64,000 nucleotides of DNA. Source: Bacillota bacterium (GTDB taxonomy: Bacteria > Bacillota > Clostridia > Lachnospirales > Lachnospiraceae). The stretch is taken from positions 244,260 through 308,259 of the forward strand of contig JAEWSH010000133.1 of NCBI GenBank assembly GCA_023398375.1, given 5' to 3'. Below, piece by piece: positions 3,089 through 54,260 of the stretch. Made by a program: the position numbers and the translations under genes. Below the pieces are notes generated by a model. That model searched no databases. It saw only the letters and a program-made list of their open reading frames with translations, and was not told where the DNA came from. How positions within the stretch are numbered: position 1 is the first letter of the stretch; each line of letters starts with the position of its first letter.

Positions 3089-3091
3089 TGT

Positions 3092-3790: not shown

Positions 3791-3812
3791 GTGAAAGGCG
3801 GTGAGATTTAAG

Positions 3813-4847: not shown

Positions 4848-4865
4848 GGTGTTTGGGAGGACAAA

Positions 4866-5440: not shown

Positions 5441-5472
5441 CAAATAAATTTGGCGGGAAAGATGTTTCAGAT

Positions 5473-6630: not shown

Positions 6631-6642
6631 AAAGAGGTCCGT

Positions 6643-8427: not shown

Positions 8428-8442
8428 AAGGAGGACAAGACG

Positions 8443-11338: not shown

Positions 11339-11390
11339 AGGGTTACAATTCGGAAGCTATAAGGCTGAATAGTAACAATGGAGGAAGGAT

Positions 11391-11909: not shown

Positions 11910-11962
11910 GATATGGTAAGAATCGGATAGAACAGGATACCATTTGGAAGGGGTTTTATAAA

Positions 11963-15280: not shown

Positions 15281-15364
15281 AGGTGGTTCCTTTCTTCCGT
15301 ACATCATAATAGTAACATTTTAATACATGAAAAGTAGATTAGCAATAGTGAACAAGTGTAGATA

Positions 15365-28390: not shown

Positions 28391-29548
28391 ATGGGGATGA
28401 TTGAAATGACAAAACCGGTCAGAGTACTACAAGTATTGGGCGGTACCGCACTTGGTGGTGCAGAAAGCCGTATCATGGATCTTTATCGTAATATGGATCG
28501 AACAAAACTACAGTTTGATTTTGTGGTTCATAACAGGAATGAAGATCACTATAATGAGGAAATACGTTCTCTTGGAGGAAAGATCTATCGGATTCCGAAG
28601 TTCAGATTTTATAATATCCTCGCATATCGGAGCGCATGGAAACGTTTTTTTTGTGAACATACGACATATGCTGCAGTACATGGGCACATGACAAGTACTG
28701 CAGCAATCTATCTGCCGATTGCAAAAAGAAACGGTGTACCGCTCACGATCGCGCATGCAAGGAGCGCAGGCACAGATCCGGGAATAAAGGGAATCCTGAC
28801 AAGATGGCTGCGGAAACACCTGTATGAACGTGCAGATTATTGTTTTGCATGTTCTAAGATAGCTGGAGATGCGGTCTTTGGTGCCGAAAATATGCGAAAA
28901 GGAAAAATACAGATCATTCCCAATGCGATCGAAGTAGATAACTATGTATATGATGGTGCGGTGAGAGAACATATGCGTGAGGAATATGGATTACAGAATG
29001 CTTATGTGATTGGGCATGTGGGAAGATTTCATTATGCAAAAAATCATGTCTTTTTACTGGATATATTCGCGGAAATCAGTAAGAAAAAAGAAAATGCCAG
29101 ACTGCTATTATTGGGCGAGGGCGGACTGATGCCGGAGATTCAGGAAAAGGCAGTGAACTTAGGAATCCAGGAAAAAGTGATTTTTGCCGGTAGTCATACG
29201 AATGTGGGAGATTTCTATCAGGCAATGGATTATCTGGTATTTCCATCTCATTTTGAAGGTCTGCCAGGGACGATTGTAGAGGCACAGGCGGCAGGACTTC
29301 GATGCCTGATATCGGATACGATCGCGAAAGAAGTCGTGGTCACAGAACTGGTTGAGACAATGTCCTTACAGAAATCTGCAAAAGAGTGGGCTGATTATGT
29401 ATTAAAAAATCAGACCTATGACAGACAACGGAATGTAACAGAGCTGAAAGAAGCAGGTTTTGATGTAAAGTCGCAGGTTACTAAGCTACAGAATTTTTAT
29501 CTGGGAAAGAAGAATGAAAATGAAATGTACTATTATGAACAAGTATAA
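28391..29548 (+). CDS. GT4 glycosyltransferase (EpsF-like)
   Basis: VLQVLGGTALGGAESRIMDL, FPSHFEGLPGTIVEAQAAGL. Confidence 0.8.
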   Translation: MGMIEMTKPVRVLQVLGGTALGGAESRIMDLYRNMDRTKLQFDFVVHNRNEDHYNEEIRSLGGKIYRIPKFRFYNILAYRSAWKRFFCEHTTYAAVHGHMTSTAAIYLPIAKRNGVPLTIAHARSAGTDPGIKGILTRWLRKHLYERADYCFACSKIAGDAVFGAENMRKGKIQIIPNAIEVDNYVYDGAVREHMREEYGLQNAYVIGHVGRFHYAKNHVFLLDIFAEISKKKENARLLLLGEGGLMPEIQEKAVNLGIQEKVIFAGSHTNVGDFYQAMDYLVFPSHFEGLPGTIVEAQAAGLRCLISDTIAKEVVVTELVETMSLQKSAKEWADYVLKNQTYDRQRNVTELKEAGFDVKSQVTKLQNFYLGKKNENEMYYYEQV

Positions 29549-31793
29549 AGTATTCAGTTGTAAGGGGATTCAGGCATTCTTAATCAATTTTCTGATTGCA
29601 TTTTCTGTATTTATTCCCTTTATGATTCAGAACCATGGAATACTCACAATATTTGATGATTTTAATAAACAGCAGATTCCAATTATGATGCTTGCGAATG
29701 ATGCAATCAGGTCAGGAAATATACTTTGGAACTGGAATATTGATATAGGATCCAGTTTTATAGGAGGAACAAGTTTCTATATTACTGGAAGTCCTTTCTT
29801 TTACCTGACGCTTTTGGTATCTAAGAATGCAATTCCGTATCTGATGGGCTGGCTGTATATGTTAAAGTATGCAGTTGCAGGGCTGTTTGCATTTTATTAT
29901 ATGGAACGGTACTGCGAAGATAAGAAATATGCGCTGATCGGATCTGTTTTATATGCATTCTCCGGATTTCAATCTACAAATATGATTTTTCATTTTCATG
30001 ATGTTGTTGCATTGTTTCCCCTGTTGCTGATTGGTCTGGATAAATTGATTCTTGATAAAAAGAAAGGTTTTTTTGCCTTTGCGGTATTTTTGAGTGCTTT
30101 ATTGAACTTTTATTTTTTGATCGCTGAAGTTGTTTTTCTGATCCTGTATTTTCTGATGCGCTTTCCTAAAAAATACTGGAGTAAGGTATTTTTATGTATG
30201 TGGGAAGGAATACTTGGAATTATAATGGCAATGATTATTTTTCTTCCAACGATTGCATTTAATTTTATGAATCCAAGGATTTCTGTCTTTTTACAATTTG
30301 AAAAGTGGTTTGATTTTAACAGGAGATACTTACTATATCTGGTAAGGGCATTTTTACTTCCGGCTGAAATGATGAGTAAGCAGTCCTATATTTCCAAACA
30401 GGATTTTTCTTCATGGTCGGCGTATCTGCCGATGGCAGGAATGATATTAGTTTGTTGCTTTGTGTTAAGATCTTATAAAACTTGGATCGCAAAGTTATTA
30501 TTCGTATTGGGTGTTTTCTGTATTGTGCCGCTTATGAACAGTGTGTTCTCGCTGTGTACGGAGACCAATTATCACAGATGGTACTATATGCTGATTCTGA
30601 TCATGAGTCTGGCCTCCAGCATTGTTATGGAAAAGAGAAAAGAGTACCCTGTTACATTCGTATCGATAGGATCGTTGTGCTTTACAATCATACTGGCGTC
30701 TGCCTCTTTTTGGTGGGACAAGTATAAATTTAAATTGATCTATATCCAGGATAAGTTCATTTGGATAATCGTTACCGCCCTGGCGGGAATGGTTATAATG
30801 TTCCTTTTGCATGGATTTGTGAAAAAGGAAAATCATTATTTTTATCTTATGTTGGCAGGGGTAAGCTTTTTTGCATTCTTTACTACATTTACGAATTGCA
30901 GAGAATACAGAGATCTGGCCAATACAAGCGGAACGCCAGGAAATGAAGGTGGAATGGCATACTATCAGCGAATACTGGCATTGGAAGAATTAAAGCAGGT
31001 GGATGCTTACAGATATGAATCTGATGATAATACCATGAATATGGCAGCAGGGGTAAAGGGGACAGGGTCTTTTTATACCACTGTAAACGGCTCTATTTTT
31101 GAATTTTATGAATCCTTACATGATGAAAGGAGCACTTTTACACCAAAAGGGCAGGAGGGAGTAAAAGAACTTTTGTCGGCAAAATATTACCTTACAACAA
31201 CCAGACAAAAAACTTCACCGATACAGACCATAAAGATAGGAGAAAAAGAATATTATGTGTATGAAAATGAGATATCTGTTCCGATCGGATATACATATGA
31301 CACGTATATGCTTTATAGTGATTACGAAAAATTAGACTATGCACATAGAGGCTTAGCCATGTTGAAAACATTGATCGTAAGAGATGAGAGTGAGAAAGAA
31401 GTAGTAAATTACATAAAAAAATATAAGGAACAACAAGATGGATCTTTTGAAAAATCAGATAAATATCAGATAGTAAAGGAACATCAGAAAGAAAGCTCAA
31501 GTAATTTTTATATTAGAAAAAATAAATTTGGTTCTACCATTATTGCGGATCATGATAAGTACGCATTTTATAGTGTTCCCTATGATGATGGCTGGAGCGC
31601 AAAAGTGAATGGGAAAAAAGTTACTATTTTAAAAGTAAATGGATTGATGGCAGTGCCTGTTTCAAAGGGTACGAATCAGATAGAATTTACATATCAGAAT
31701 ATTTATCTGTTAATAGGTGCAGTGCTGTCAGCTTTGGGATGGGTGATCTACCTTGTATACAGAAAAGAAAGAAGAGGAAAAATAGAATCGTGA
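29535..31793 (+). CDS. YfhO-family GT-C membrane glycosyltransferase
   Basis: About 750 aa. IFDDFNKQQIP first-loop motif, then >12 TM segments and a C-terminal soluble domain plus a final TM, which is YfhO architecture. The start is ambiguous (29514 or 29535) and overlaps the upstream GT4. Confidence 0.75.
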   Translation: MNKYKVFSCKGIQAFLINFLIAFSVFIPFMIQNHGILTIFDDFNKQQIPIMMLANDAIRSGNILWNWNIDIGSSFIGGTSFYITGSPFFYLTLLVSKNAIPYLMGWLYMLKYAVAGLFAFYYMERYCEDKKYALIGSVLYAFSGFQSTNMIFHFHDVVALFPLLLIGLDKLILDKKKGFFAFAVFLSALLNFYFLIAEVVFLILYFLMRFPKKYWSKVFLCMWEGILGIIMAMIIFLPTIAFNFMNPRISVFLQFEKWFDFNRRYLLYLVRAFLLPAEMMSKQSYISKQDFSSWSAYLPMAGMILVCCFVLRSYKTWIAKLLFVLGVFCIVPLMNSVFSLCTETNYHRWYYMLILIMSLASSIVMEKRKEYPVTFVSIGSLCFTIILASASFWWDKYKFKLIYIQDKFIWIIVTALAGMVIMFLLHGFVKKENHYFYLMLAGVSFFAFFTTFTNCREYRDLANTSGTPGNEGGMAYYQRILALEELKQVDAYRYESDDNTMNMAAGVKGTGSFYTTVNGSIFEFYESLHDERSTFTPKGQEGVKELLSAKYYLTTTRQKTSPIQTIKIGEKEYYVYENEISVPIGYTYDTYMLYSDYEKLDYAHRGLAMLKTLIVRDESEKEVVNYIKKYKEQQDGSFEKSDKYQIVKEHQKESSSNFYIRKNKFGSTIIADHDKYAFYSVPYDDGWSAKVNGKKVTILKVNGLMAVPVSKGTNQIEFTYQNIYLLIGAVLSALGWVIYLVYRKERRGKIES

Positions 31794-32995: not shown

Positions 32996-34948
32996 ATGAA
33001 AAAAAAGATTGGAATTCAAATACTGCCTATATTGGGATCTATGACAGCAATTGGAATTCTCGTTTCCCTGTTAATATTGGGACTGCATCAGATCCAGAAT
33101 CAGTTAAAGAAAGATTTTCTAGAAAAGCATGAACTTTCGGAAGGTATGACGGTTACTGTAAAGGGAGTGAATTCTTCTGAGGATATCGTATGGTGGCAGG
33201 ATGAAGGAGAAGATACGGATGGCGCTGCTTATTTTTTTCTGCCATCTTATGCTCCGACAGATGCGATAGAAATCAATTGCAACTATGTGGAACAAGTGAT
33301 CATGGAAAGTGATAATGGAACGCAGTTTGTATTGTCCGCCGGAAAAAATGAAGTACCGGTTCAGATCGGTACCAGTTATAAGACTACATTTATAGATGGA
33401 GAGGGACAGATTACAGAAAGTAAGGAAATAGTATTTCTGCGTTCTGCATATTTACCGGCCCTATATGTAAATACGGAATCCGGTTCATTAGAATACCTGA
33501 ATGAAGATAAAAATAATAAAGAGACCGGCGATATGGCTTTATATGACGAAGATGGAATCCTGCGCTATAAAGATAAGTTAAAGTCTGTTTCCGGCAGAGG
33601 AAACCAGACCTGGGACTGTGAAAAAAAGTCTTATGGGATAAAGCTGCGTCATGCAGCTAATCTGCTGGAAATGGGAAAAGCAAAGAATTGGGTACTGTTG
33701 TCCAATGTATATGATGAATCTTATATTCGTAATAAGATCACTTATGAAATGGCAAGAAATGCAGGAATGGAAGAGACGGCAGAACTGCAATATATAGACC
33801 TTTACTGTAATGGAGTGTATGCAGGTATGTATCTCTTGTGTGAAAAGGTAGAGCTTGTCAAAGGAAGAATCAATATCACAGGTCTGGAAGAGAAAAATGA
33901 AGAAGTAAATGGTAAAAATTTAGAAGAAGCAGAAGATTATCTTAGCCCAGACGGAACCAGGAAAGGAAAACTGCTGATCAATAATCCGGAAGATATTACA
34001 GGTGGATATCTGGTCGAACACGATTACGGCGAAAAGTATGGTGCTGAGATAAGCGGATTTGTGACCCCTAATAATGACAAATATGTCATAAAAAATCCAA
34101 AGTGTGCTTCAAAGGAAGAAGTTAATTATATTGCAGATTTATTTCAACAGATGGAGGCAGCTGTTCTATCTGACGATGGGTATAATCACGAGACCGGAAA
34201 ATATTTTACGGAATATATCGATCTGGAATCTTTTGCAAAAAAATATATAGTGGAAGAAATATCCAAAAATGACGGGGGCGGTACCACCAGTGCATTCTTT
34301 TATAAAAGACCTGACCGCCAAGACACACTGATCTATTGCGGGCCGGTATGGGATTATGATAAAGCTTATGGGCGCGTTAAAAATCTGGATGCAGACCCAT
34401 ATAGCTTAGGCTATGAGACGCTGCATGATTCGGGAACAGATTTTTATTATTTTTTATACCAGAAACCAGAGTTTCAAGAGGCTGTCAAAAAATATTATAA
34501 GGAATGCTTTTCGGATTATCTGGGAGAATTACAATACGACGGAATTGATGCAATCGTGAATGAGATACGTTTTTCTGCTATTTTGGATGGTGTCAGATGG
34601 AAAAGTATGCGCAGTGATGATTTTGTGGCATATCAGGATACAAATTATGAAGCAGTCGCTGCATATATCAAGGAGTTCATTACGGATAGAAAAGAATTTT
34701 TAGATGCTGTCTGGATTCAGAATAAAGAGATCGCAGATGTACATATTGTTAATAATATCGAAAATGCAGAATACTATTTTGGAGTCATAAAGGGAACAGG
34801 GCTGCCGGCTATGCCGCACAGCAGCATACACGGCTATCATTTTGAAGGATGGTTCATAGAGGGTTCTGATAATATTTACTCAGAAAATATGCCGATCAAT
34901 AAAGATACAACAATCATTGGCAGATGGGTCGAGAAAGAAGATTCGTAA
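32996..34948 (+). CDS. CotH-kinase-family protein with an N-terminal membrane anchor and a C-terminal Listeria/Bacteroides-type repeat
   Basis: Signal-anchor ILPILGSMTAIGILVSLLILGL. CotH core: KKSYGIKL, NWVLLSNVYDESYIRNKITYEMA, LYCNGVYAGMYLLCEKVE. C-terminus: HGYHFEGWFIEG...TTIIGRW. Confidence 0.7.
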   Translation: MKKKIGIQILPILGSMTAIGILVSLLILGLHQIQNQLKKDFLEKHELSEGMTVTVKGVNSSEDIVWWQDEGEDTDGAAYFFLPSYAPTDAIEINCNYVEQVIMESDNGTQFVLSAGKNEVPVQIGTSYKTTFIDGEGQITESKEIVFLRSAYLPALYVNTESGSLEYLNEDKNNKETGDMALYDEDGILRYKDKLKSVSGRGNQTWDCEKKSYGIKLRHAANLLEMGKAKNWVLLSNVYDESYIRNKITYEMARNAGMEETAELQYIDLYCNGVYAGMYLLCEKVELVKGRINITGLEEKNEEVNGKNLEEAEDYLSPDGTRKGKLLINNPEDITGGYLVEHDYGEKYGAEISGFVTPNNDKYVIKNPKCASKEEVNYIADLFQQMEAAVLSDDGYNHETGKYFTEYIDLESFAKKYIVEEISKNDGGGTTSAFFYKRPDRQDTLIYCGPVWDYDKAYGRVKNLDADPYSLGYETLHDSGTDFYYFLYQKPEFQEAVKKYYKECFSDYLGELQYDGIDAIVNEIRFSAILDGVRWKSMRSDDFVAYQDTNYEAVAAYIKEFITDRKEFLDAVWIQNKEIADVHIVNNIENAEYYFGVIKGTGLPAMPHSSIHGYHFEGWFIEGSDNIYSENMPINKDTTIIGRWVEKEDS

Positions 34949-37049: not shown

Positions 37050-38930
37050 ATGTGCGGAATATGCGGATTTTTATCTAAAAAAAGTATTACAACAGAACAG
37101 TTAAAGAAAATGAATGATACCATGTATCACCGCGGACCGAACGACAGCGGGGAAGAGATTACTTCTTTACGGGATGGTTACAGCCTTGGACTGGCACAGA
37201 GGCGCCTGTCTATTCTGGATCTGTCGGTATTGGGGCATCAGCCGATGCATTCAGACAATGGCAGGATCAGTGTCGTATTCAATGGTGAGATTTATAATTT
37301 CCTGGAATTAAAGGAAGAACTGAGAGGTTATCCATTTCGATCGGACTGTGATACAGAAGTAATCATTGCAGCTTATCTGAGATGGGGAATCGATTGTATT
37401 CATAGATTCAAGGGAATGTTTGCGATTGCCTTATTTGACAGGGAAACAGACGAGTTATTTCTGGTAAGAGACAGAATCGGAAAAAAACCATTCTACTATT
37501 GGCTGGAAGAGGGAAATCTGGTGTTTGCTTCTGAGTTAAAACCGATCATGGCAGTACCTGGTTTTCAGTACACGATTCGCAAAGATGTGATCAAACAATA
37601 TATGTTCCAGCAATATATCAATGCACCTGCGACTATTTTTGAGAATGTCTTCAAGTTGGAACCTGGGGCTATCCTGCGTTTTCGTTATGGAGATATCAAG
37701 ATATGGAAATACTGGGATATCTCAAAAGTGTATCAGGAGCAGAAGGTACGCCCTGTAACTTCTTATGAAGAAGCAAAAGCGACTTTGAAGGACTTATTAA
37801 GGGAATCAGTGAAACAGAGAATGATTGCGGATGTACCGCTGGGGACTTTCTTGAGTGGCGGTTATGATTCGTCACTTGTTTCTGCGATCGCACAGGAATT
37901 GTCGCAAGAACCGATCAAGACTTTCTGTATCGGATTCCAGGAAGAGAAGTTCAATGAAGCAAAGTATGCCAAGGAAGTAGCAGCGCACCTTGGAACCAAT
38001 CATACGGAAACATATATTGATGAAAAAGAAATGTTCGAGCTCGTAGAGAGCATTCCGACTTATTTCGATGAACCATTTGCAGACAGTTCCCAGATACCGA
38101 CCATGCTGGTATCGAAACTGGCAAGACAGCAGGTCACGGTCGCTCTGTCAGGGGATGGCGGGGACGAGTTCTTCTGTGGCTATAATATCTATGATTCTGT
38201 CGGATTGGCACAGAAGCTTGATGGTCTGGGCGGTATCGTGAACGGTATCTGTAATGTGCCGCCTTTTAAGCAGATGGAACTATTATCAAAGCTGCCCTTC
38301 CGCGTTCGTGTGGTCGCCATTAACCGTAACCCGGAGACAAAGACACAGATCGGCGGAGAGAACTATATCCGTGCGATCGATAAGATGCTTGTGACGGATA
38401 GTCTGTCCAGCAAGTTCGAGATAGAAAGGCGTTATCAGGAAAAGAACTGGCAGGAGCGGAGAATGCTGCTGGATATGGATACGTATCTTCCGGGAGATAT
38501 TTTATGTAAGGTCGACAGAGCTTCTATGAAGTATTCGCTGGAATCCAGGTGTCCGATTCTGGATACGGATGTTATGGAATATTCGTATCGCCTGCCACAT
38601 GAATTTAAGTTCCGAAACGGAGATAAGAAGCATATCCTAAAGGATATTGCGTATGACTATATACCAAAAGAATTATTAGACAGACCGAAGGTCGGATTTG
38701 GGGTGCCGCTTGATAAATGGATGCGTGGCCCATTGAAAGAGCAGCTGTTGGAGATGAGCGATCTATCTTTCCTAAAAGAGCAGAATATCTTTGATAGTAC
38801 TTATGTAAATCAATTTATGACACGTTATCTGGAAGTGGGAGACAGAGGACCCGCAACAGGCGAGAACTTTTCTAAGACTGCATGGTCATTCTTTGCATTC
38901 CAGCAGTGGTACCGTGCGTATTGCAAATAG
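37050..38930 (+). CDS. asnB: Asparagine synthase (glutamine-hydrolysing) family amidotransferase, copy 1 (WbpS-like context)
   Basis: MCGICGF has the Ntn nucleophile Cys2. Also FNGEIYNF, and FLSGGYDSS and SGDGGDEFFCGY, which are PP-loop / synthetase-domain motifs. Confidence 0.9.
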   Translation: MCGICGFLSKKSITTEQLKKMNDTMYHRGPNDSGEEITSLRDGYSLGLAQRRLSILDLSVLGHQPMHSDNGRISVVFNGEIYNFLELKEELRGYPFRSDCDTEVIIAAYLRWGIDCIHRFKGMFAIALFDRETDELFLVRDRIGKKPFYYWLEEGNLVFASELKPIMAVPGFQYTIRKDVIKQYMFQQYINAPATIFENVFKLEPGAILRFRYGDIKIWKYWDISKVYQEQKVRPVTSYEEAKATLKDLLRESVKQRMIADVPLGTFLSGGYDSSLVSAIAQELSQEPIKTFCIGFQEEKFNEAKYAKEVAAHLGTNHTETYIDEKEMFELVESIPTYFDEPFADSSQIPTMLVSKLARQQVTVALSGDGGDEFFCGYNIYDSVGLAQKLDGLGGIVNGICNVPPFKQMELLSKLPFRVRVVAINRNPETKTQIGGENYIRAIDKMLVTDSLSSKFEIERRYQEKNWQERRMLLDMDTYLPGDILCKVDRASMKYSLESRCPILDTDVMEYSYRLPHEFKFRNGDKKHILKDIAYDYIPKELLDRPKVGFGVPLDKWMRGPLKEQLLEMSDLSFLKEQNIFDSTYVNQFMTRYLEVGDRGPATGENFSKTAWSFFAFQQWYRAYCK

Positions 38931-38947
38931 AAAAAGTCGGGAGAAGT

Positions 38948-40042
38948 GTGAGTTTGAAAAAAGTAGCATTTTATATCAATAGTCTGGATAAAGGCGGTGC
39001 GCAGCGGGTCATAGTGAATTTATCGGAATTTTTATATCAGAATGGTACGGAAGTTGTTCTGGTTACGACCAGAAAAGCGGACGAGGAATACCTTGTGAGC
39101 GAGGGCATCCGGAGAATTTACTCCGACATTACGGCTTCGGAAGTGACAAAAAGCAGAATTCGTAATTTCCGGAACCGCTTTTGCAAGTTAAGGAATATCT
39201 GGAAACAGGAAAAACCGGATATTATCGTGTCGTTTATCGGAAAGAATAATTTCATGGCAATAGCGACTGCTGCTTTTCTAAGAGCGTCTGTTGCGGTATC
39301 TGTCAGAGGAGAACCGACAGAGGAATATTATAATCCGTTGATGCGTTTTATTGCAAGGCATTTATTTGCTTGTGCACGCGGAATTATTTTCCAGACTGAA
39401 GATGCAAAAGCATTTTTTCCAAAGTACGTTCAGAAACGTTCCGTTATCTTACCAAATCCGTTAGATATCTCATGCATCAGACCACGTTTTACAGGAAAAA
39501 GAGAAAATACGATTGTATCTGTCGGACGTGTGGATGATAATAAGAATCATAGAATGTTAATTGACGCTTTTGCGGCAATTCATACGGATTTTCCGGAAAT
39601 GGGGTTAGTCATATACGGAAATGGAGATATGCGTAACGAATTAATAAAATATATAAAAAAAATAGATATGGAGGATTATATCTCCATGCCTGGAAATGTA
39701 AGCCGGATACCGGATCATATTGAACGGGCAAGAATCTTTGTACTGACTTCAGATACCGAAGGTATGCCCAATGCCTTGCTGGAAGCAATGGCACTTGGTC
39801 TGGCAGTGATATCTACGGATTGTCCTTGCGGAGGTCCCAGAACGGTGATTCAGGATGGGGTCAATGGTCTGCTGGTACCTGTCAGAGATACGCAGGCACT
39901 TGCAAAAGCTTTAAGGAGATTCCTAAGTGCCCCTGATCTGGAGCAGAAGCTTGGAGAACAGGCGGCTAAGATTCAGGAACAGCTTTCTCCGGATCAGGTA
40001 AACCGTAAGTGGCAGTATTATCTGGAGCGTTTATCTAAATAG
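38948..40042 (+). CDS. GT4 glycosyltransferase (PglJ/PglH-like), paralogue of 35075-36196
   Basis: SLDKGGAQRVIVNLS, TSDTEGMPNALLEAMALGLAVISTDCPCGGPRTVI. I preferred the GTG 38948 start to the 38882 extension, which overlaps asnB. Confidence 0.85.
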   Translation: MSLKKVAFYINSLDKGGAQRVIVNLSEFLYQNGTEVVLVTTRKADEEYLVSEGIRRIYSDITASEVTKSRIRNFRNRFCKLRNIWKQEKPDIIVSFIGKNNFMAIATAAFLRASVAVSVRGEPTEEYYNPLMRFIARHLFACARGIIFQTEDAKAFFPKYVQKRSVILPNPLDISCIRPRFTGKRENTIVSVGRVDDNKNHRMLIDAFAAIHTDFPEMGLVIYGNGDMRNELIKYIKKIDMEDYISMPGNVSRIPDHIERARIFVLTSDTEGMPNALLEAMALGLAVISTDCPCGGPRTVIQDGVNGLLVPVRDTQALAKALRRFLSAPDLEQKLGEQAAKIQEQLSPDQVNRKWQYYLERLSK

Positions 40043-40059: not shown

Positions 40060-41856
40060 ATGTTAAGAGAATTGGAATATCCGTTTGATCATGAATATAT
40101 TCTGAAAAAAGCAAAAAGCTTAAAGAAGACGTTACTAAATGAAGATACGAGACGGATCAAAAAGAAAATAGCCGTACTGGGTGGCAGCACGACGCACGAT
40201 ATCATCAGAATTCTGGAACTGTTCCTCTTAAATTACGGAATTGAACCGACTTTTTTTGAATCAGAGTATGCGCAGTACTGGCAGGATGTAATGTTCAATA
40301 GTGAATTAAAAGAATTTGCACCGGATATCATCTTTATTCATACCAGCAACCGCAATATCAAAGAGTATCCGAATGTGACGCAGGATGCGCAGGAAATAGA
40401 GCTCTTATTACAACAGACATATGAACATTTTGCAGTGATGTGGAAGAAAATAGAAACAGAATATCATTGTCCTGTGATTCAGAATAATATGGAATATCCA
40501 TTTTACCGTTTACTTGGGAATAAAGATGCAAGTGATATGCATGGAAGAATTCATTTTATCAATCAGTTGAATGATAAATTTTATGCGTACGCGTCTTCCC
40601 ATAATAACTTTTATATCAATGATATTAATTACTTGTCAGCTTGTTTCGGCTTGGATAAATGGGCAGATCCGTTATTCTGGCATATGTATAAGTATTCGTT
40701 ATGCCTGCCGGCAATTCCGTCATTATCTTTTAATGTGGCTAATATTATGAAGGCTATCTATGGTAAAAATAAAAAATCGCTCGTGTTAGATATGGACAAT
40801 ACGCTTTGGGGCGGTATTGTTGGTGATGATGGAGTGGAGAATCTGGAGATTGGTCAGGAGACTTCCATGGGGCAGGTTTTTTCAGAATTCCAACAGTATG
40901 TAAAAGACCATAAAGGAATTGGTATCATGCTGAATGTTAGTTCCAAAAATGAACATGAAAATGCGATTGCCGGGTTGGAACATCCGGATGGCGTCTTACG
41001 TCCCGATGATTTTATACTGATCAAGGCAAATTGGGAACCAAAAAGCATGAATATACAGAATATCGCGAAAGAATTAAATATTCTTCCGGAAAGTCTTGTA
41101 TTCGTAGATGATAATCCGGCAGAGCGTGAGATTGTGAGGCAGCAGGTTCCGGGAGTGGCAATTCCGGAGATCGGCAGTCCTGAGCAATACATCAGAATAC
41201 TTGATCACTCAGGATTCTTTGAAGTGACAAGCCTGTCAGAAGATGACCGGAAAAGAAATGAGATGTACAAAGCAAATGTACAAAGACAACAGCAGGAGCA
41301 AAGCTTTGGGGATTATGGAGACTATCTGAAATCATTGGAGATGACAGGAACCATAAAAACATTTGAACCATTGTATATGGCAAGAATTGCACAGCTTACC
41401 AATAAGAGTAACCAGTTCAACCTGACTACGAAGCGTTATACGCAAAGCGAGATTGAAGAAGAAGCAGCCAATCCGGATAGGATCACTTTGTATGGTAAAT
41501 TAGAAGACAGATTCGGTGATAATGGCGTGGTATCCATAGTAATCGGCAGGATCGAGGGAGCAATCCTTCATATCGATCTGTGGCTCATGAGCTGCCGTGT
41601 ATTAAAGCGGGATATGGAATTTGCCATGATGGATGAGCTTGTTGCGCAGTGCATGAAAAAAAATATTACACAGATAAAAGGCTATTACTATCCGACTGCA
41701 AAGAATGCAATGGTGCGTGAATTCTATGCCCTGCAGGGATTCACCAAAGAAAAAGAAGATGAAATCGGCAATACGGTGTGGTATTATAACATAGACAAGA
41801 ATTATGAAAATAAAAATCAGGTAATCAGGGTAAATGAAGGAACAGTACAGCCGTGA
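40060..41856 (+). CDS. FkbH-like protein (HAD-IIIC phosphatase domain + C-terminal acyl-transfer domain)
   Basis: LVLDMDNTLWGG (DxDxT), MLNVSSKNE, VFVDDNPAEREIV, and C-terminal DLWLMSCRVLKRDME, the FkbH Cys region. Confidence 0.85.
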   Translation: MLRELEYPFDHEYILKKAKSLKKTLLNEDTRRIKKKIAVLGGSTTHDIIRILELFLLNYGIEPTFFESEYAQYWQDVMFNSELKEFAPDIIFIHTSNRNIKEYPNVTQDAQEIELLLQQTYEHFAVMWKKIETEYHCPVIQNNMEYPFYRLLGNKDASDMHGRIHFINQLNDKFYAYASSHNNFYINDINYLSACFGLDKWADPLFWHMYKYSLCLPAIPSLSFNVANIMKAIYGKNKKSLVLDMDNTLWGGIVGDDGVENLEIGQETSMGQVFSEFQQYVKDHKGIGIMLNVSSKNEHENAIAGLEHPDGVLRPDDFILIKANWEPKSMNIQNIAKELNILPESLVFVDDNPAEREIVRQQVPGVAIPEIGSPEQYIRILDHSGFFEVTSLSEDDRKRNEMYKANVQRQQQEQSFGDYGDYLKSLEMTGTIKTFEPLYMARIAQLTNKSNQFNLTTKRYTQSEIEEEAANPDRITLYGKLEDRFGDNGVVSIVIGRIEGAILHIDLWLMSCRVLKRDMEFAMMDELVAQCMKKNITQIKGYYYPTAKNAMVREFYALQGFTKEKEDEIGNTVWYYNIDKNYENKNQVIRVNEGTVQP

Positions 41857-41901
41857 GCTGCAGGTTGAAAAGTAACAAAGGAATAGATTAGGAGCAGACG
41901 T

Positions 41902-42144
41902 ATGAGCAGAGAAGAATTATTTGAAAAATTAAATGAAGTATTCAGAGATGTTTTTGATGATGAGGAGATTACAGTAACAGATGCAACCACAGCAGATGAC
42001 ATTGAAGACTGGGATTCTTTGGAGCACATCAATCTGATGTCGGCAGTAGAGCAGGAATTTGGCATTAAATTTTCTATGGGGCAGATCGTCACAATGAAAA
42101 ATGTAGGTGAGATGGCCAATATTATTTTGGAGAAATTAGGATAG
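41902..42144 (+). CDS. Acyl/peptidyl carrier protein
   Basis: 80 aa, acidic. IEDWDSLEHINLM carries the phosphopantetheine Ser in a DSL motif. Confidence 0.85.
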   Translation: MSREELFEKLNEVFRDVFDDEEITVTDATTADDIEDWDSLEHINLMSAVEQEFGIKFSMGQIVTMKNVGEMANIILEKLG

Positions 42145-42242
42145 TGAGAGCACAGGTGCGTAACAATGCGTAGGTATCAGGGGACAAAATACCTTTTGAC
42201 CCCGACATCAAAGTATGCAATTATGAAGCAGAGGTTATTAAA

Positions 42243-43706
42243 ATGAACATTACATCTTTTTCCTTTCTGTGTTTTTTTACGGTATTATTGATGGTATATT
42301 ACATCGTACCTAAAAAAGCACAATGGGGAGTGTTATTACTTGCAAGCATTATGTTCTTTGCAGCATCGGGAGAACCTTGGTTAATCGGTTATCCGATTGC
42401 TACGGTCATAGTCATATATGGGGGCGCATTGTATATTCATAAAGTGAAAGAGCAGAAAAAGAGACAAATCGCACTCTCACTTGTTGTTGTATTATGCGTT
42501 TCTTTGTTATGTATACTAAAATACTTTCACTTGGGGTTACTGGCACCACTGGGAATCTCGTTTTATACATTGACATTATTGGGATATGTCATTGACGTAT
42601 ATTATGAAATCGGAGAACCGGAAACGAATATTCTAAAACTGGCATTGTTCGGATATTACTTTCCGACAATGATATCAGGACCTATTATCCGCTACCGGGA
42701 TATGAGAGAGCAGCTATATGCAGGTCATCAGCTTGTGTATAAAAATGTGACATACGGAATGCAGCGGATCGTATGGGGCTTTTTTAAGAAGCTGGTGATA
42801 GCTGAACGAATGGGACTTATCGCAGATACGGTATTTAACAATTATGAAATCCATTCGGGATTTACGGTCATCATTGCGGGCATTTGTTTTACATTCCAGT
42901 TATATACGGATTTTTCGGGATACATGGATATCGTTCTGGGTGTTTCTGAGACTTTCGGCATTATACTTCCTGAGAATTTTGAAACACCGTTCTTTTCACG
43001 CAGTATTGCGGAATACTGGAGACGCTGGCATATTACATTAGGAACATGGCTTAGAGAATATTTATTTTATCCATTGCTTAGAACAAAGTTTTTCAGCTCA
43101 TTACCAAAGCGGTTAAAAGATAAATGCGGTAAGAAAACAGCAAAGAAGATGACCACCTATCTGGCAATGCTGATCTTATGGTTTACGATCGGATTCTGGC
43201 ATGGAGGAGTATGGAAATACATTATTGGATCTGGGCTGTTGCACTGGTTCTATATAGTATCAGGAGAAGTATTGGAACCTGTCTGGAAGAAGCTGAAAGG
43301 CTGGTTCCATGTGAAAGATGACAGCAAAGGCTTTATTTTTTTCCAGCGTGTAAGAACTTTTACATTAGTTACAATTGGTCTGATATTCTTCCGTGCGGAT
43401 AATGCAATGGTGGCATGTAGGATGCTGGCAAGTATTTTCCGTTCCTGGAATCCGGAAATATTCTGGAATGGATCTCTTTTCGAACTGGGACTTGATTGGA
43501 TTGAATTTACGATTGCAATGGTTTCCCTTGTAATGTTACTTATGGTATCTATTCTGCAACAGACTGAAAGTATCAGGGACAGGATCGCAAGACAGAAACT
43601 GGTGGTACGCTGGGTGATTCTCTATGCACTTATTTTTTATGTGATACTTCTGGGAAATTACGGACCTGGATATAGTGCGGCAGAATTTATCTATCAGGGA
43701 TTTTAG
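42243..43706 (+). CDS. MBOAT-family membrane O-acyltransferase (DltB/AlgI/PatA-like)
   Basis: 487 aa, polytopic. EYWRRWHITLGTWLREYLFYPL and IGFWHGG contain the conserved MBOAT His residues. Confidence 0.9.
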   Translation: MNITSFSFLCFFTVLLMVYYIVPKKAQWGVLLLASIMFFAASGEPWLIGYPIATVIVIYGGALYIHKVKEQKKRQIALSLVVVLCVSLLCILKYFHLGLLAPLGISFYTLTLLGYVIDVYYEIGEPETNILKLALFGYYFPTMISGPIIRYRDMREQLYAGHQLVYKNVTYGMQRIVWGFFKKLVIAERMGLIADTVFNNYEIHSGFTVIIAGICFTFQLYTDFSGYMDIVLGVSETFGIILPENFETPFFSRSIAEYWRRWHITLGTWLREYLFYPLLRTKFFSSLPKRLKDKCGKKTAKKMTTYLAMLILWFTIGFWHGGVWKYIIGSGLLHWFYIVSGEVLEPVWKKLKGWFHVKDDSKGFIFFQRVRTFTLVTIGLIFFRADNAMVACRMLASIFRSWNPEIFWNGSLFELGLDWIEFTIAMVSLVMLLMVSILQQTESIRDRIARQKLVVRWVILYALIFYVILLGNYGPGYSAAEFIYQGF

Positions 43707-43739
43707 TGTGAGAAGAAGCGCGTGGGATTAGGAGTTATT

Positions 43740-44819
43740 ATGAATAGAAAACAGATCATAAAAACAATTGTATTCATAGGTGTATTTTTACTCATCCTGC
43801 AGACGGTCACGTATGTGATTCGTACCAATGGCGGTGTAAAGGATCGTTTTACAGGTTTCTATGCGGAAAAAAGTGATACCCTGGATGTAGTCATGATTGG
43901 TTCCAGTCCAGTATATCCTTGTTTTGCAGGGGCTAAGATGTGGGGAGAATATGGTTTTACTGCATTTCCCTTAGCTTCCAACATGCAGAGACCTATGGCA
44001 ACGTTGTCACTTGTGAAAGAAGTAAGAAAAACACAGAATCCTGAGGTGTTTGTATTTGAGATGAAACAGTATACTGCTTCTGAGGAAGATATGTCAGATA
44101 ACATGGCCTATACAAGAGGCGTTACGGATAATATGAAATATTCCTGGAACCGCATCGATGCAATTAACCGCATGGTACCGGAAGTGGGAGAACGATATAC
44201 CTATTATTTTGATATTTTTAAGTATCATTCCAATTGGAAGACAATGGTTCTGCCAAGTCAATTGGTATGTTTCGACTATGAAAAATCAGAACCGTTAAAA
44301 GGATTTGAATTCAAGGACAGCTACTATCCAATGAAACAGGTGGATTATTCCGATATTACAGATACGGCTGCAATAGAACCGATCTATGAAGCTGCGTTAC
44401 GGGAACTGCTTGCATATCTTCAGGAAAACCATCTTCAGGCATTGTTTACCGTAGCACCGTATTCCTATGAATTTGCGGACAAGCAAAGAAATTATAATTA
44501 TATGGAAGAAATCATACGATCTTACGGATACGATTTTTTGAATCTGACGGAGCATACGGAAGAGATGGACTTTGATTTCGCAACGGATTTTTATGATAAG
44601 GGAGTGCATACAAATCCACTTGGTGCCGAAAAAGCGACAGAATTTCTTGCAAAATATCTGAAGGATCATTATCAGATTCCCGATAAAAGGGGGAACAAGG
44701 ATTATAAAAGCTGGGATGAGGCATATTCCAGATGGACGGCGCAAATGAAGGAATCCAGGGCTGTTACACTGGAAAAAATTAAAAATCAGGAATATACGGA
44801 GCCGGAAGTGGAAGATTAA
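43740..44819 (+). CDS. Membrane-anchored SGNH/DltD-like extracytoplasmic acyltransferase/esterase
   Basis: One N-terminal TM segment. VVMIGSSPVY is a block-I Ser and FYDKGVHTNPLGAEK is a block-V DxxH. I preferred ATG 43740 (SD GGATTAGGAG) to GTG 43722. Confidence 0.6.
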   Translation: MNRKQIIKTIVFIGVFLLILQTVTYVIRTNGGVKDRFTGFYAEKSDTLDVVMIGSSPVYPCFAGAKMWGEYGFTAFPLASNMQRPMATLSLVKEVRKTQNPEVFVFEMKQYTASEEDMSDNMAYTRGVTDNMKYSWNRIDAINRMVPEVGERYTYYFDIFKYHSNWKTMVLPSQLVCFDYEKSEPLKGFEFKDSYYPMKQVDYSDITDTAAIEPIYEAALRELLAYLQENHLQALFTVAPYSYEFADKQRNYNYMEEIIRSYGYDFLNLTEHTEEMDFDFATDFYDKGVHTNPLGAEKATEFLAKYLKDHYQIPDKRGNKDYKSWDEAYSRWTAQMKESRAVTLEKIKNQEYTEPEVED

Positions 44820-44928: not shown

Positions 44929-46806
44929 ATGTGTGGAATAGCAGGATTTTGTAACTTAAAAAGACATTGGAAAGAAAATATCGACAATATGAATCAGCGT
45001 ATGTTCCACAGAGGACCGGATGCGGTAGGTGTATGGAGCAGGGAAGACCATGGGGTAGTCTTGGGACATCGCCGGTTATCAATTGTGGATCTGACACCAA
45101 GCGGTGCACAGCCTATGGAGTCCCATAGCGGAAGATTTATCATGGTGTATAACGGAGAGATCTATAATTATAAAGAAATAGCGGAAAAACTGATAGAAGA
45201 GCGCCGCGTACAGGCATTCCGAGGAACCTCTGATACGGAAGTCCTGCTGGAAGCCATGGAAGCATATGGCATACAGGAAGCCATCTCTATGTGCAAAGGT
45301 ATGTTTGCGATTGCGCTTTATGATAGAGAAAAAAGTAAATTATATTTATTAAGAGATAGAGTGGGAGAAAAACCACTCTATTATGGATTTGTACAGGAAG
45401 GGTTTGTATTTGGTTCTGACCTTGGTTCTATATCTGCCTTGAAAGAATTCCGTAATGAGATAAACACAGAGATCCTGGATGTATACTTTGTACATGGCTA
45501 TATACCGGCACCCTATTCTATTTATAAAGACATCTATAAATTAGAACCGGGTACGATATTGACGATTGATGAGCCATTCCAAAAACCTTTGCTGGCTCCT
45601 TTCTGGTCTATGAAGGAAGCTGCCAGAAAAGGACAGAAAAATCTGTTCAAAGGAAGCAGAACAGAGGCATCAGAAGAATTAGAGCGTCTTCTGAAACAAT
45701 CCATTGCAGGGCAGATGGAGGCAGATGTTCCAGTAGGGGCATTCCTGTCTGCGGGGATTGACAGCAGTACCATTGTTGCCCTGATGCAGTCATTAAGTAC
45801 GAATAAAGTAAAAAGCTTTACCATTGGTATGGAGGAGGCAGCCTATAACGAGGCGACGATAGCAAAAGAGATAGCAAGACATCTTGGGACAGAGCATACC
45901 GAGATGTATATCACGGAGAATGATGCAAAAGAAGTGATTCCGAAGCTTTCCCATATGTTCAGTGAACCCTTTGCGGATTCCTCACAGATACCGACCTACC
46001 TGGTCAGTAAGATGACAAGAGAACATGTAACAGTATCCCTGAGCGGTGACGGCGGAGATGAATTATTCTGTGGTTATAATTCATATGAATCCATTATTGG
46101 TCTCTGGAATCGTATGAGTAAAGTGCCATATCCAATCCGAAAGATATGCAGCGACTTGGTATTACATACACCAATGCGCAAAAATAAAGATTTCTGTGTA
46201 AGAGGCAGATTACTTGCAGCAAGGGGACCGGAAAAGTTATATGAAATATCGAATCAGGAAGAGAATATTGCCAATGCAATCGCAAAGACGCATACAGACC
46301 CACCCTATAAATACAGCGAATACCAGACAGGATTCTTAACAGAAACCCATCATAATATTATGTTGATGGATATGCTGATGTATCATCCGGATGATATCCT
46401 GGTAAAGGTAGACAGATGTGGTATGGCAGTGTCTTTAGAATCCAGAATACCGATGTTAGATAAGGACGTGGTCGAGTTCGCATGGTCGCTGCCGATTGAC
46501 TATCTGAGAAAAGATGGAATCGGAAAACTGGTCTTACGCGATGTACTATACCGTTATGTGCCAAAAGAAATGATGGAACGTCCAAAGACAGGATTTGCGA
46601 TTCCGATCGATAAGTGGCTGCGCCAGCCAAAGCTCCGTGCGTGGGCAGAAGCACTGCTTGATAAGAAAACAATAGAGCAGCAGGGAGTACTGGATGCAGA
46701 TGTGGTATCCCGCATCTGGAAGGACTATATCGAAAAAGGTGTATGGAGAGTTCAGATCTGGTATCTGCTCATGTTCCAGGAGTGGATGGTGAGTGAAAGG
46801 AAGTAA
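44929..46806 (+). CDS. asnB: Asparagine synthase (glutamine-hydrolysing) family amidotransferase, copy 2
   Basis: MCGIAGF, YNGEIYNY, FLSAGIDSS, SGDGGDELFCGY. It is colinear with copy 1 but clearly diverged. Confidence 0.9.
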   Translation: MCGIAGFCNLKRHWKENIDNMNQRMFHRGPDAVGVWSREDHGVVLGHRRLSIVDLTPSGAQPMESHSGRFIMVYNGEIYNYKEIAEKLIEERRVQAFRGTSDTEVLLEAMEAYGIQEAISMCKGMFAIALYDREKSKLYLLRDRVGEKPLYYGFVQEGFVFGSDLGSISALKEFRNEINTEILDVYFVHGYIPAPYSIYKDIYKLEPGTILTIDEPFQKPLLAPFWSMKEAARKGQKNLFKGSRTEASEELERLLKQSIAGQMEADVPVGAFLSAGIDSSTIVALMQSLSTNKVKSFTIGMEEAAYNEATIAKEIARHLGTEHTEMYITENDAKEVIPKLSHMFSEPFADSSQIPTYLVSKMTREHVTVSLSGDGGDELFCGYNSYESIIGLWNRMSKVPYPIRKICSDLVLHTPMRKNKDFCVRGRLLAARGPEKLYEISNQEENIANAIAKTHTDPPYKYSEYQTGFLTETHHNIMLMDMLMYHPDDILVKVDRCGMAVSLESRIPMLDKDVVEFAWSLPIDYLRKDGIGKLVLRDVLYRYVPKEMMERPKTGFAIPIDKWLRQPKLRAWAEALLDKKTIEQQGVLDADVVSRIWKDYIEKGVWRVQIWYLLMFQEWMVSERK

Positions 46807-52613: not shown

Positions 52614-54260
52614 ATGATTAGGAATCAGACAGATAAAAGGAATGGGAAGCGTAGTCAAAGGCCTTTACGGGAAATCGTAATGCAAAACAAAGCAGAAATC
52701 CTGTTATGCATACTCGCATTTGCGTTTTTCTTATATATGGCCATGAACAAGTTAATGGCAACACCGTTATGGCTGGATGAAACCCTGGAATATTATATTT
52801 CAAAATACATGACAGGTGAGATTTCATGGTACAGCAATAACGGTATTATGGGGACGACGAACATGTATCAGAGAATGCTGGGAGGCTTTCAACCACCACT
52901 GTATAATTTTCTGATGTATTTCTGGATCGCGATCAGTGACACGGAATGGTGGTTCCGCATCTGGAATGTGCTGATGAGTGCGCTGGCGGCAATTGGGGTT
53001 TATAAGACGGTAAAGAGAGTGAGTTCCTATCGTGTGGCTGCACTCTCCGTTGTTATTTATTCCTGTATCTATGAAGTCATTTATTACACGCAGGAATGTG
53101 CGGAATATTCCATGCTATTGATGTCTATCGCATGGCTTGTGTATTTTTACTTTAAACTATTCGAGAACTTGAATCTTAACAGTATGATCTGGTTCGCGGT
53201 ATTCTGCAGTATTGCGATGTATACACAATATGGGGCAGCATTTGTGGTAGCTCCGCTGCTGCTGAGTATTCTGATCAGAGTCCTGCAGACAAAAAGAGCG
53301 GTTGCCATAAAGCAGCTGGTGGTCGTATATCTGGTTACATTTTTAACAGCTGCAGTTCCGTTGATCATGTTCTTTCTCCTTCCGCAGATGGAGAATCAGG
53401 TACCATCTTCTGAGAATGTGGAGGCATGGAATTTTTACAATAACAGTGTAGTACAGGATTTCATTCATATGTTCATTGATGTATTCAGATGGAATACGAT
53501 CGAATCCATTACAAGATTTTTCTATCCGGCACTGGCAGTCAGTATCGGATTACTGTTGATTTCTATTTTCTTATTGGCATTCAGCAAGGATAAATTACTG
53601 AAGCATTTACTGCTATGTAATCTGGGAACCTGGATCTTATATTATATTCCGACCAGGGCAGGTATCTATGCAAGAGGATATTTTGGATTCCGTTATAATA
53701 TCTTCTTTATTCCTCTATGGCTCATAAGTATGATCTATATGCTATATGAGGTGTATCGTATTCTGGGCCGGATGAAAAATGTACAGAGCAGAAGAAATAT
53801 ACAGCGTGCATACTGTATCCTGATGGCAGTAATGGCTGCAGGATATTGTATTTATGGAGCGCATCAGATCAATAAGGGATGGGAAAAAGCTGATACGAGA
53901 GGCTGCGTGAAGGCATGGTATGAGAAAGAAGGCTATCAGGTACCGACATTTGTTGAAATCAATCAGGCACCAAGTTTTTCCTATTATTTTGAACATGACG
54001 ACAGATATCGGGCTGACTATGAAAAAAATGTCTATAGAGAAGAAATACAGATCGGTTTCGAAGAAGATAAGTATAAAGAAGAATATACAGAGTACGAGGA
54101 ATATCTGAAGGATACATTCGGAGAAAAACTTCCGGATGCGATGTATCTTTTCGTAGGAAATAAAGAAGAGTCCAGATTATTTCCTGTTTTGGAGGATAGA
54201 GGCTATACGATCGAGGAAGTCTATAAGACGACTGCTCAGCTCTATTACGCGCACAAATAA
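52614..54260 (+). CDS. GT-C family membrane glycosyltransferase (PMT_2/ArnT-like)
   Basis: First-loop motif PLWLDETLEYY, about 11 TM segments, C-terminal soluble ~140 aa. SD is GGGAGAG. Confidence 0.6.
   Translation: MIRNQTDKRNGKRSQRPLREIVMQNKAEILLCILAFAFFLYMAMNKLMATPLWLDETLEYYISKYMTGEISWYSNNGIMGTTNMYQRMLGGFQPPLYNFLMYFWIAISDTEWWFRIWNVLMSALAAIGVYKTVKRVSSYRVAALSVVIYSCIYEVIYYTQECAEYSMLLMSIAWLVYFYFKLFENLNLNSMIWFAVFCSIAMYTQYGAAFVVAPLLLSILIRVLQTKRAVAIKQLVVVYLVTFLTAAVPLIMFFLLPQMENQVPSSENVEAWNFYNNSVVQDFIHMFIDVFRWNTIESITRFFYPALAVSIGLLLISIFLLAFSKDKLLKHLLLCNLGTWILYYIPTRAGIYARGYFGFRYNIFFIPLWLISMIYMLYEVYRILGRMKNVQSRRNIQRAYCILMAVMAAGYCIYGAHQINKGWEKADTRGCVKAWYEKEGYQVPTFVEINQAPSFSYYFEHDDRYRADYEKNVYREEIQIGFEEDKYKEEYTEYEEYLKDTFGEKLPDAMYLFVGNKEESRLFPVLEDRGYTIEEVYKTTAQLYYAHK

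Follow-up and report, generated by a model that had tools for sequence, protein, structure and literature searches.

In current models, acyl groups reach polymers across the membrane either by the Dlt pathway, in which an adenylase loads a carrier protein with D-alanine, or by carrier-free systems in which an MBOAT or AT3 protein is fed by acetyl-CoA. PatA/PatB and other MBOAT/SGNH pathways outside Dlt use acetyl-CoA and, according to a mechanistic paper of 2025, have no carrier protein (PMC12148441). The FxYxxF motif, whose tyrosine was shown to carry the acyl group, was defined in PatA and DltX, and in non-Dlt MBOATs it is fused to the enzyme (PMC12148441). Here, we analyse a 64,000-nucleotide stretch of a Lachnospiraceae genome (assembly GCA_023398375.1, contig JAEWSH010000133.1, forward-strand positions 244,260 to 308,259; hereafter the window), which carries at positions 40060–44819 four contiguous plus-strand open reading frames (ORFs) that encode, in this order, an FkbH-like HAD-IIIC protein, a carrier protein, an MBOAT and an SGNH-like protein. 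We read this cassette, with a probability of roughly 0.6, as a carrier-protein-dependent MBOAT/SGNH system that would place a hydroxy-acyl ester on a cell-surface glycan. Within this interpretation the architecture of the cassette and its co-conservation are supported by the data presented below, and from related systems we infer the substrate, its loading, its transfer and its acceptor.

According to the ORF list of the window, the four genes, which had been described as contiguous in an initial annotation of this DNA, are all present on the plus strand, and every motif quoted in that annotation was found in the translated sequences. The gaps flanking or separating the ORFs measure 17, 45, 98 and 33 nucleotides (nt), each gene is preceded by a ribosome-binding site, and a pattern scan found no plus-strand terminator between the cassette genes; the layout is thus operon-like.

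The first gene (40060–41856, +) encodes a protein of 598 amino acids (aa) that was matched by TIGR01686 (FkbH domain) at 281.2 bits, nearly twice the cutoff of 146.65 (9.9e-84), by TIGR01681 (HAD-IIIC) at 61.3 bits against a cutoff of 35.75 (1.6e-16), and by Pfam FkbH_N (1.2e-11). These scores, together with intact HAD and Cys motifs, bear out the FkbH-type family call that had been made from the letters. Residues 19–395, spanning the N-terminal two thirds of the protein, matched PDB entry 3SLR (B. fragilis BF1531, solved but uncharacterised) at 6.2e-55. The HAD catalytic motifs of glyceryl-acyl carrier protein (ACP) loaders (DxDxT, S/T-K and DD) are complete: motif I, LDMDNTLWGG (residues 243–252; 40786–40815, +), holds the nucleophile Asp244 and is followed by VSSKN (residues 293–297) and FVDDNPAERE (residues 348–357). 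The region LMSCRVLKR (residues 509–517; 41584–41610, +) contains the conserved Cys512, the proposed acyl-S-enzyme site, and ranked among the three best-conserved peptide patterns, which were employed in the metagenome scan described below. In an alignment of 26 FkbH sequences, reaching down to 31% identity, D244, D246, T248, S295, K296, N297 and D350 are invariant, while D351 and M510-S511-C512-R513 are conserved at a level of at least 90%. A multidomain protein of 2554 aa likewise keeps the SCR motif in its two FkbH domains (ISCR/LSCRV), and the DxD motif recurs there too. The family is large, comprising 14,226 clusters at 50% identity (E ≤1e-3) or 5,494 at E ≤1e-30, and many of its members are annotated merely as 'HAD-IIIC family phosphatase'.

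The carrier gene (41902–42144, +) starts 45 nt downstream of the FkbH-like gene, with AGGAG located 8 nt upstream of its ATG, and encodes a stand-alone protein of 80 aa. Pfam PP-binding matched this protein at 26.9 bits (5.9e-6), above the cutoff of 20.8, in keeping with its initial designation as a carrier protein, and an NCBIfam scan yielded only AcpP-type ACP models, weak and all below cutoff (E up to 0.01), with no DltC-type match. The phosphopantetheine site, Ser39, lies in DWDSLEH (residues 36–42), and W-D-S39 is conserved at a level of at least 90% in 89 cassette ACPs. A 100-aa antisense ORF (41817–42119, −), also seen in related loci, overlaps with the carrier gene and is most simply viewed as a by-product of the conservation of that gene.

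The third gene (42243–43706, +; 487 aa) was matched by Pfam MBOAT (2.1e-18), which agrees with the family assigned from its motifs YWRRWHITL (residues 258–266) and GFWHGG (residues 317–322), containing His263 and His320, respectively. The catalytic His is in place, GFWHGG being aligned with FWHG, a His-containing motif in DltB, and the closest solved structure is that of DltB (PDB 6BUG, 9.4e-24, residues 76–350), with which both His motifs align. The match to the DltB model TIGR04091 (1.2e-47) reached 163 bits against a cutoff of 375, and the protein is therefore not a DltB equivalog. The initial annotation had termed the cassette 'Dlt-like', a label that fails every Dlt membership test that was run: in addition to this DltB score, nothing in the cassette matches DltD, and a DltX is absent. 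It had also overlooked that the MBOAT ends in FIYQGF (residues 482–487; 43686–43703, +), a C-terminal FxYxxF acyl-shuttle hexapeptide with Tyr484, which follows two hydrophobic segments (residues 412–442 and 451–473). The fetched loci encode 78 MBOATs longer than 400 aa, most of which have F-x-Y-x-x-[FYI] as their last residues, FIYQGF occurring 25 times. By these sequence features the MBOAT is assigned to the PatA/AlgI-like type with a fused FxYxxF motif.

The start of the fourth gene is most likely the ATG at 43740 (43740–44819, +; 359 aa) rather than position 43722 (full ORF 43722–44819, 365 aa), since AGGAG lies 6 nt before the former and since the gene callers applied to the source contig start there. 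Its product is predicted to be a single-pass, membrane-anchored protein with one N-terminal hydrophobic segment (residues 4–29), and contains MIGSSPV and DFYDKGVHTN; none of 28 homologues deviates at G54-S55-S56-P57, D283, D286 or H290. No significant Pfam or NCBIfam match was obtained for this protein: Lipase_GDSL_2 remained sub-threshold (3.5e-4), with weak matches in 15 of the 28 family members, and the DltD models of Pfam/NCBIfam matched neither the protein nor any of its 28 homologues. The families named at the outset hold in the profile searches for FkbH, PP-binding and MBOAT, with this sub-threshold match for the fourth. Single-sequence and profile searches against the sequences of solved structures in the PDB were likewise without a match. 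When an AlphaFold model of the protein (pLDDT 80.3, pTM 0.81) was compared with the PDB by Foldseek, the best matches were SGNH hydrolases (TesA, probability 0.99–1.0, E ~0.01, TM 0.65 on the target), PatB ranked lower (probability ~0.7), and DltD entries were absent from the top 50. A DltD label for this protein was dropped, given the lack of a PDB sequence match and the generic SGNH hydrolases and PatB returned by Foldseek, and we consider the protein SGNH-like with moderate confidence. The single anchor, the invariant GSS and D...H residues and the SGNH hydrolases found by Foldseek speak for an SGNH-fold partner; the sub-threshold Pfam match and the spacing of the supposed Asp-x-x-His block, which reads D286-K-G-V-H290, i.e. 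D-x-x-x-H (359-aa numbering), speak against one. Profile-profile comparison detected no homology between the SGNH-like family and the partner families DHHW/AlgX-like, P347 and P386.

The proposed relay would begin in the cytoplasm, where the FkbH-like enzyme would take 1,3-bisphosphoglycerate and its HAD domain (Asp244/Asp246) would strip the 3-phosphate. By analogy with the FkbH/OzmB family, the glyceryl group would then pass via Cys512 to the phosphopantetheine arm at Ser39 of the carrier, and the resulting thioester would be accepted by the MBOAT at the cytoplasmic face of the membrane. As in PatA and DltB/DltX, the MBOAT, with His320, may move the acyl group to its own tyrosine, Tyr484 of FIYQGF, at the outer face, where the anchored SGNH-like protein would take it on Ser55 and esterify a hydroxyl group on the polysaccharide that the surrounding locus produces.

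The conservation of the cassette was assessed starting from the SGNH-like protein and, separately, from the FkbH-like protein. When one genome per species was scanned, relatives of the fourth protein turned up in 183 genomes; the best 80, all Lachnospiraceae-type, were analysed by tblastn of the four cassette proteins within ~10 kb of the SGNH-like gene (individual loci carry the prefix L). In 19 of these 80 genomes, FkbH, ACP, MBOAT and SGNH-like genes formed an uninterrupted block of unchanged order. In related genomes the cassette was found at two chromosomal sites unrelated to each other, namely site A, corresponding to the window position (6 loci), and site B (14 loci, including L006), situated between homologues of the window GT2 gene (11963–12901) and of gene 15429–17948; at site B the SGNH-like gene is included in the block. 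The four-gene block was additionally found in a phosphonate/TagF-type locus. In Lachnospiraceae the cassette always lies within large glycan loci, at site A or B, amid glycosyltransferase and sugar-modifying genes. In the window, the sole long minus-strand ORF (13298–15307, −; 669 aa, no Pfam match) is positioned exactly at site B.

A neighbour-joining tree placed the cassette-linked SGNH-like proteins in clades of their own and the copies that occur alone in separate clades, implying that the lone copies represent a different subfamily rather than the same gene minus an insertion. The possibility, prompted by a Kineothrix locus, that FkbH-ACP-MBOAT is an insertion beside a resident, unrelated SGNH-like gene was rejected as regards 'unrelated', because the cassette-linked proteins form their own clades, because the gene accompanies the cassette at site B and in a further type of locus, and because FkbH and MBOAT genes are also linked, in a different gene order, to a remote homologue. 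Lachnospiraceae share a conserved glycan locus of the order AsnB-GT4-SGNH-AsnB-GT2-GT11-ABC, to whose core the SGNH-like gene belongs and in which it often stands alone, as in L003 (Kineothrix sp. MB12-C1).

Starting from the FkbH-like protein, a metagenome scan with a diverse FkbH alignment produced 80 loci at 43–70% identity from gut, marine and soil/peat sources. An ACP gene lay within 1.5 kb in 55 of these 80 FkbH-centred loci, and a recheck added three ACP genes that had been hidden by an ORF overlap filter. An MBOAT gene was present within 6 kb in 41 of the 80; among the 33 loci that extend for 4 kb or more to either side, the figure was 22. In loci that belong to the same type of glycan locus and lack FkbH, the background was 5 in 52 (Fisher p = 6e-7). 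The linkage of FkbH and MBOAT persists across changes in gene order (FkbH-ACP-MBOAT-partner, MBOAT-DHHW-x-FkbH-ACP, FkbH-MaoC-SDR-ACP-MBOAT and FkbH-SGNH-like-MBOAT) and in partner family, the MBOAT being paired with an SGNH-like protein of the window type, with a member of the DHHW/AlgX-like group (PF14286/PF16822) or with a different single-pass protein (320–390 aa). All 34 MBOATs of the window-type cluster have an adjacent ACP gene, and 28 of the 34 also have an FkbH gene. The co-conservation check proposed with the initial annotation thus gave a positive result, comprising a recurrent four-gene order, two chromosomal sites, varied gene orders and an ACP adjoining each cluster MBOAT.

Several observations weigh against the relay. 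The SGNH-like gene stood alone, with no FkbH, ACP or MBOAT gene within 10 kb, in 47 of the 80 genomes. Loci noted for this core SGNH-like gene, often as a lone copy, are L013–L016, L018, L021–L026, L028–L037, L040–L042, L044–L046, L048–L052, L054, L055, L057–L061, L069–L072, L074, L075, L080, L081, L084 and L086, and also L003. Six further genomes, all Eisenbergiella-type (L063, L066, L078, L079, L083 and L085), contained ACP-MBOAT-SGNH without FkbH within 8–10 kb; the four-gene unit as annotated consequently recurs without being obligate. FkbH-ACP(-MaoC-SDR) occurs without a nearby MBOAT in L082 and L087 and in about half of the metagenome loci. A very abundant FkbH homologue with 72% identity (in 58 blocks of the sequence collection; L168:10001-13410, L169) adjoins neither an ACP nor an MBOAT gene, and a human-gut class with the order FkbH-SGNH-like-MBOAT has no ACP anywhere in the locus (L122–L128 and L132–L134). 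Furthermore, acetyl-CoA, and not a carrier protein, serves those MBOATs with a fused FxYxxF motif that have so far been investigated (PMC12148441), and the SGNH assignment draws on a weak Foldseek E (~0.01) and a sub-threshold Pfam match, with an atypical Asp-His spacing. The remaining genomes of the SGNH-centred set comprise six with an MBOAT match but neither FkbH nor ACP (in five a distant MBOAT of ~33% identity, 3–7 kb upstream, and in one a truncated contig) and two with FkbH-ACP-MaoC-SDR located 8 kb upstream and no MBOAT. In the six FkbH-less ACP-MBOAT-SGNH loci, the search for an alternative ACP loader revealed no adenylase, the upstream genes being glycosyltransferases or, in L066, genes of a butyrate pathway.

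These findings bear on an explanation that we consider unlikely, according to which the cassette would consist of two independent modules that happen to adjoin: FkbH and ACP for a cytoplasmic step, for example the N-acylation of an amino sugar or a nonulosonic precursor, and MBOAT and SGNH-like protein for an acetyl-CoA-dependent O-acetylation of the PatA/PatB or AlgI/AlgJ kind. The many loci with FkbH-ACP pairs and no MBOAT, and the frequent SGNH-like genes without the other three, would be expected under this explanation, which is also in line with the FxYxxF fusion typical of acetyl-CoA users, the several aminotransferases and amino-sugar enzymes in the wider window, and the FkbH-domain gene cj1302 in the flagellar glycosylation locus of Campylobacter jejuni (PMC7099621). 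However, the ACP adjoins the MBOAT in 34 of 34 cluster loci, including the six that lack a nearby FkbH, the four-gene block moves as a whole between the two sites on the chromosome and is also carried into a locus of an unrelated kind, and MBOAT neighbours are enriched about tenfold at FkbH relatives over the local background. Moreover, no candidate for a cytoplasmic acyl-ACP:sugar acyltransferase was identified in the cassette or its flanks, and a carrier-fed relay is the reading that we retain.

The ACP-less human-gut class differs from the cassette in its surroundings, as it lies outside glycan loci, beside BlaR1/BlaI-like, PHP-domain and phosphoglucomutase genes; its MBOAT ends in FLYAR[YF] and its partner is a remote homologue of the fourth protein (hhalign probability 97.3). 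Its position is one of two points in favour of a further explanation, in which the relay would operate as proposed on a different envelope polymer, such as lipoteichoic acid or peptidoglycan; the other is that Dlt and PatAB act on housekeeping polymers (PMC12148441). Given that the Lachnospiraceae cassette is always found inside large glycan loci, at either site, such an acceptor appears very unlikely, and a polysaccharide of the locus is preferred.

Other membrane proteins were observed at FkbH-linked loci. Downstream of the abundant FkbH homologue, L168 and L169 encode a polytopic protein of 531 aa, which precomputed Pfam data assign to PF27792 (CHIM_prot), together with DUF6044, DUF6020, AT3 and DUF6077 proteins. 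Elsewhere, FkbH-ACP is followed by a protein of 513–527 aa with ~7 hydrophobic segments, no Pfam match and a conserved TITMYVR near its C-terminus (L088:3147-4691, L089:2721-4304 and L143:10194-11735), which might be another kind of membrane partner. The proposal that these 513–531 aa polytopic proteins (the TM7 cluster and CHIM_prot) are divergent MBOATs was discarded, as no similarity to MBOATs was detected. Additionally, some loci encode a second, different MBOAT, with FLYFNF or FLYYRF at its C-terminus and no ACP gene beside it, together with a single-pass P386-family protein of 356–386 aa for which Pfam gave no match; this pair, present in L020, L027, L038, L039 and L047 (upstream of the cassette, minus strand) and in L090 and L091, is probably a separate O-acylation pair of the same loci.

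The nature of the acyl group was approached through the genes that accompany the cassette. A MaoC dehydratase gene and an SDR gene follow the cassette in 12 of the 14 site-B loci (L006, L019, L020, L027, L043, L047, L053, L062, L064, L065, L067 and L068) and are present in 10 of the 80 metagenome loci; other loci with this gene pair include L082, L087, L141, L144, L155, L160 and L162. A Glyoxalase_4/VOC gene encoding 135–153 aa occurs in 15 of the 80 FkbH-centred metagenome loci and in three of the six site-A cassettes, being located before FkbH (L011, L012 and L017) or between ACP and MBOAT (L104, L106 and L117), and its product could be an acyl-ACP epimerase or isomerase. The FkbH-DH-KR set of the bryostatin BryA loading module has been proposed to turn glyceryl into D-lactyl. 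The accessory MaoC and SDR genes, and the VOC gene, thus fit a pathway that starts with glyceryl-ACP and optionally proceeds to a lactyl or epimerised group. As the window cassette contains neither MaoC, SDR nor VOC genes, its substituent is predicted, by this analogy, to be an unmodified O-glyceroyl group, and the product of the sister cassettes would be O-lactyl or an epimer.

The same genes allow for a relay that functions as proposed with a cargo other than glyceryl, either a different acyl phosphate or an ACP-bound unit remodelled by enzymes encoded elsewhere. The window-type FkbH clade is only 31–37% identical to multidomain polyketide synthase (PKS)-like FkbH proteins, and the sister cassettes possess the tailoring genes MaoC, SDR and Glyoxalase_4/VOC. 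In the Eisenbergiella locus L066, which lacks FkbH, phosphate butyryltransferase and butyrate kinase genes (ptb-buk, an acyl-phosphate pathway), preceded by acyl-CoA dehydrogenase and electron-transfer flavoprotein genes, lie directly upstream of ACP-MBOAT-SGNH. This adjacency was, however, seen once, at a locus boundary, and the window cassette carries no tailoring gene, retains intact the HAD phosphatase and Cys motifs of the glyceryl-transferring family and scores at almost double the TIGR01686 cutoff; a non-glyceryl cargo is therefore quite unlikely, and glyceryl remains the favoured substrate.

It is conceivable, though to our mind a little short of an even chance, that the cassette represents a widespread and unrecognised class of carrier-dependent MBOAT systems, with interchangeable partners, that would place short hydroxy-acyl esters derived from 1,3-bisphosphoglycerate on surface glycans. 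Such a class would install glyceroyl groups, lactoyl groups where MaoC and SDR are present, and an epimer where VOC is present; it would have taken the logic of its loader and tailoring enzymes from the chemistry of polyketide starter units, and would be common in gut Lachnospiraceae and occur also in marine and soil bacteria. If correct, this would constitute a second carrier-dependent MBOAT route, the acyl-Tyr shuttle would not be restricted to acetyl and D-alanyl groups, and it would be explained how non-acetyl esters such as glyceroyl and lactyl could reach extracellular glycans. Central carbon metabolism would thereby be tied to the way in which abundant commensals of the gut (Kineothrix- and Eisenbergiella-like Lachnospiraceae) decorate their surface, and the compact, four-gene system could be directly reconstituted.

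The cassette is embedded in a very large surface-glycan region, nearly all of which is on the plus strand, in a window with a G+C content of ~40% whose closest relatives are Lachnospiraceae metagenome-assembled genomes and isolates. The window sequence is contained without differences in a metagenome-assembled scaffold of the ENA. It is situated between a GT4 glycosyltransferase gene, which forms the upstream flank together with an AsnB-type amidotransferase gene (37050–40042, +), and the second of the two AsnB-type amidotransferase genes (44929–46806, +), synteny being conserved on either side. The two AsnB-type paralogues (37050–38930 and 44929–46806), which are ~39% identical across genomes, flank the segment of GT4 and cassette and are both syntenically conserved, which suggests amidated uronic acids in the glycan. 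The region from 15 to 58 kb encodes a sugar dehydratase, aminotransferases, an initiating Bac_transf protein, an ATP-grasp protein, a UDP-sugar dehydrogenase and a formyltransferase-like protein, in addition to DUF2334, several GT4/GT2/GT11/GT17, YfhO, CotH and PMT_2 proteins and an ABC exporter. Among these, the CotH-family kinase (32996–34948), YfhO (29514–31793) and PMT_2 (GT-C type, 52614–54260) of the same glycan locus hint at phosphorylation and extracytoplasmic glycosylation steps. Further upstream, positions 643–12901 harbour genes for a Polysacc_synt_2 dehydratase, DegT aminotransferases, a cytidylyltransferase, a GNAT protein, an AT3 acyltransferase (5401–6630) and two ~590-aa proteins without a Pfam match, and resemble a nonulosonic-acid (pseudaminic- or legionaminic-type) synthesis set.

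The initial annotation stated that no characterised FkbH-to-MBOAT relay was known to its author, and in the openly accessible full texts searched no paper was found on an FkbH- or ACP-fed MBOAT other than Dlt. A literature search on gellan, which had been put forward as a chemical precedent for O-glyceryl esters, likewise returned nothing relevant.

With the Dlt system (DltA, DltC, DltB, DltX and DltD), the cassette shares a small carrier that would bear the acyl group as a thioester, an MBOAT through which the group would cross the membrane and an extracytoplasmic, anchored, putatively hydrolase-fold protein that would deliver it to a polymer. It differs in that its loader is an FkbH/HAD-IIIC protein instead of an adenylating enzyme, no AMP-binding (DltA-type) protein being encoded in the cassette or its flanks, and in that its carrier matches AcpP-type models alone, all below cutoff. 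There is no separate DltX, as the shuttle motif is fused to the MBOAT and the gaps of 17–98 nt are too short for a microprotein gene. Furthermore, the fourth protein matches no DltD model, and the predicted acyl group is a hydroxy acid, whereas that of Dlt is an amino acid. With PatA/PatB, the cassette has in common the catalytic His of the MBOAT, a C-terminal FxYxxF placed after two extra hydrophobic segments and a single-pass partner putatively of the SGNH fold, and in contrast to PatA/PatB the window-type cluster has a dedicated ACP adjoining 34 of 34 MBOATs, usually together with an FkbH loader.

The cj1302 locus of C. jejuni resembles the cassette in that an FkbH-domain protein is encoded within a glycan modification locus. 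It also contains ACP genes and has been linked to a di-O-methylglyceroyl group on pseudaminic acid. The attachment of that group presumably takes place in the cytoplasm, where it would N-acylate a nucleotide sugar, and no MBOAT/SGNH relay is involved, unlike what is proposed for the cassette. Finally, the FkbH/OzmB polyketide systems (methoxymalonyl-ACP, tetronates and lactate starters) share with the cassette an FkbH-like enzyme with its HAD and Cys motifs and a stand-alone ACP and, in the case of the lactate starter units, optional tailoring by a dehydratase and a reductase (PMC7489565). The cassette is accompanied by neither a PKS, a FabH-like tetronate enzyme nor oxidation or methylation genes of the FkbG/I/K type; in place of polyketide assembly, the consumer that lies downstream of its loader and carrier is a membrane MBOAT within a glycan locus.

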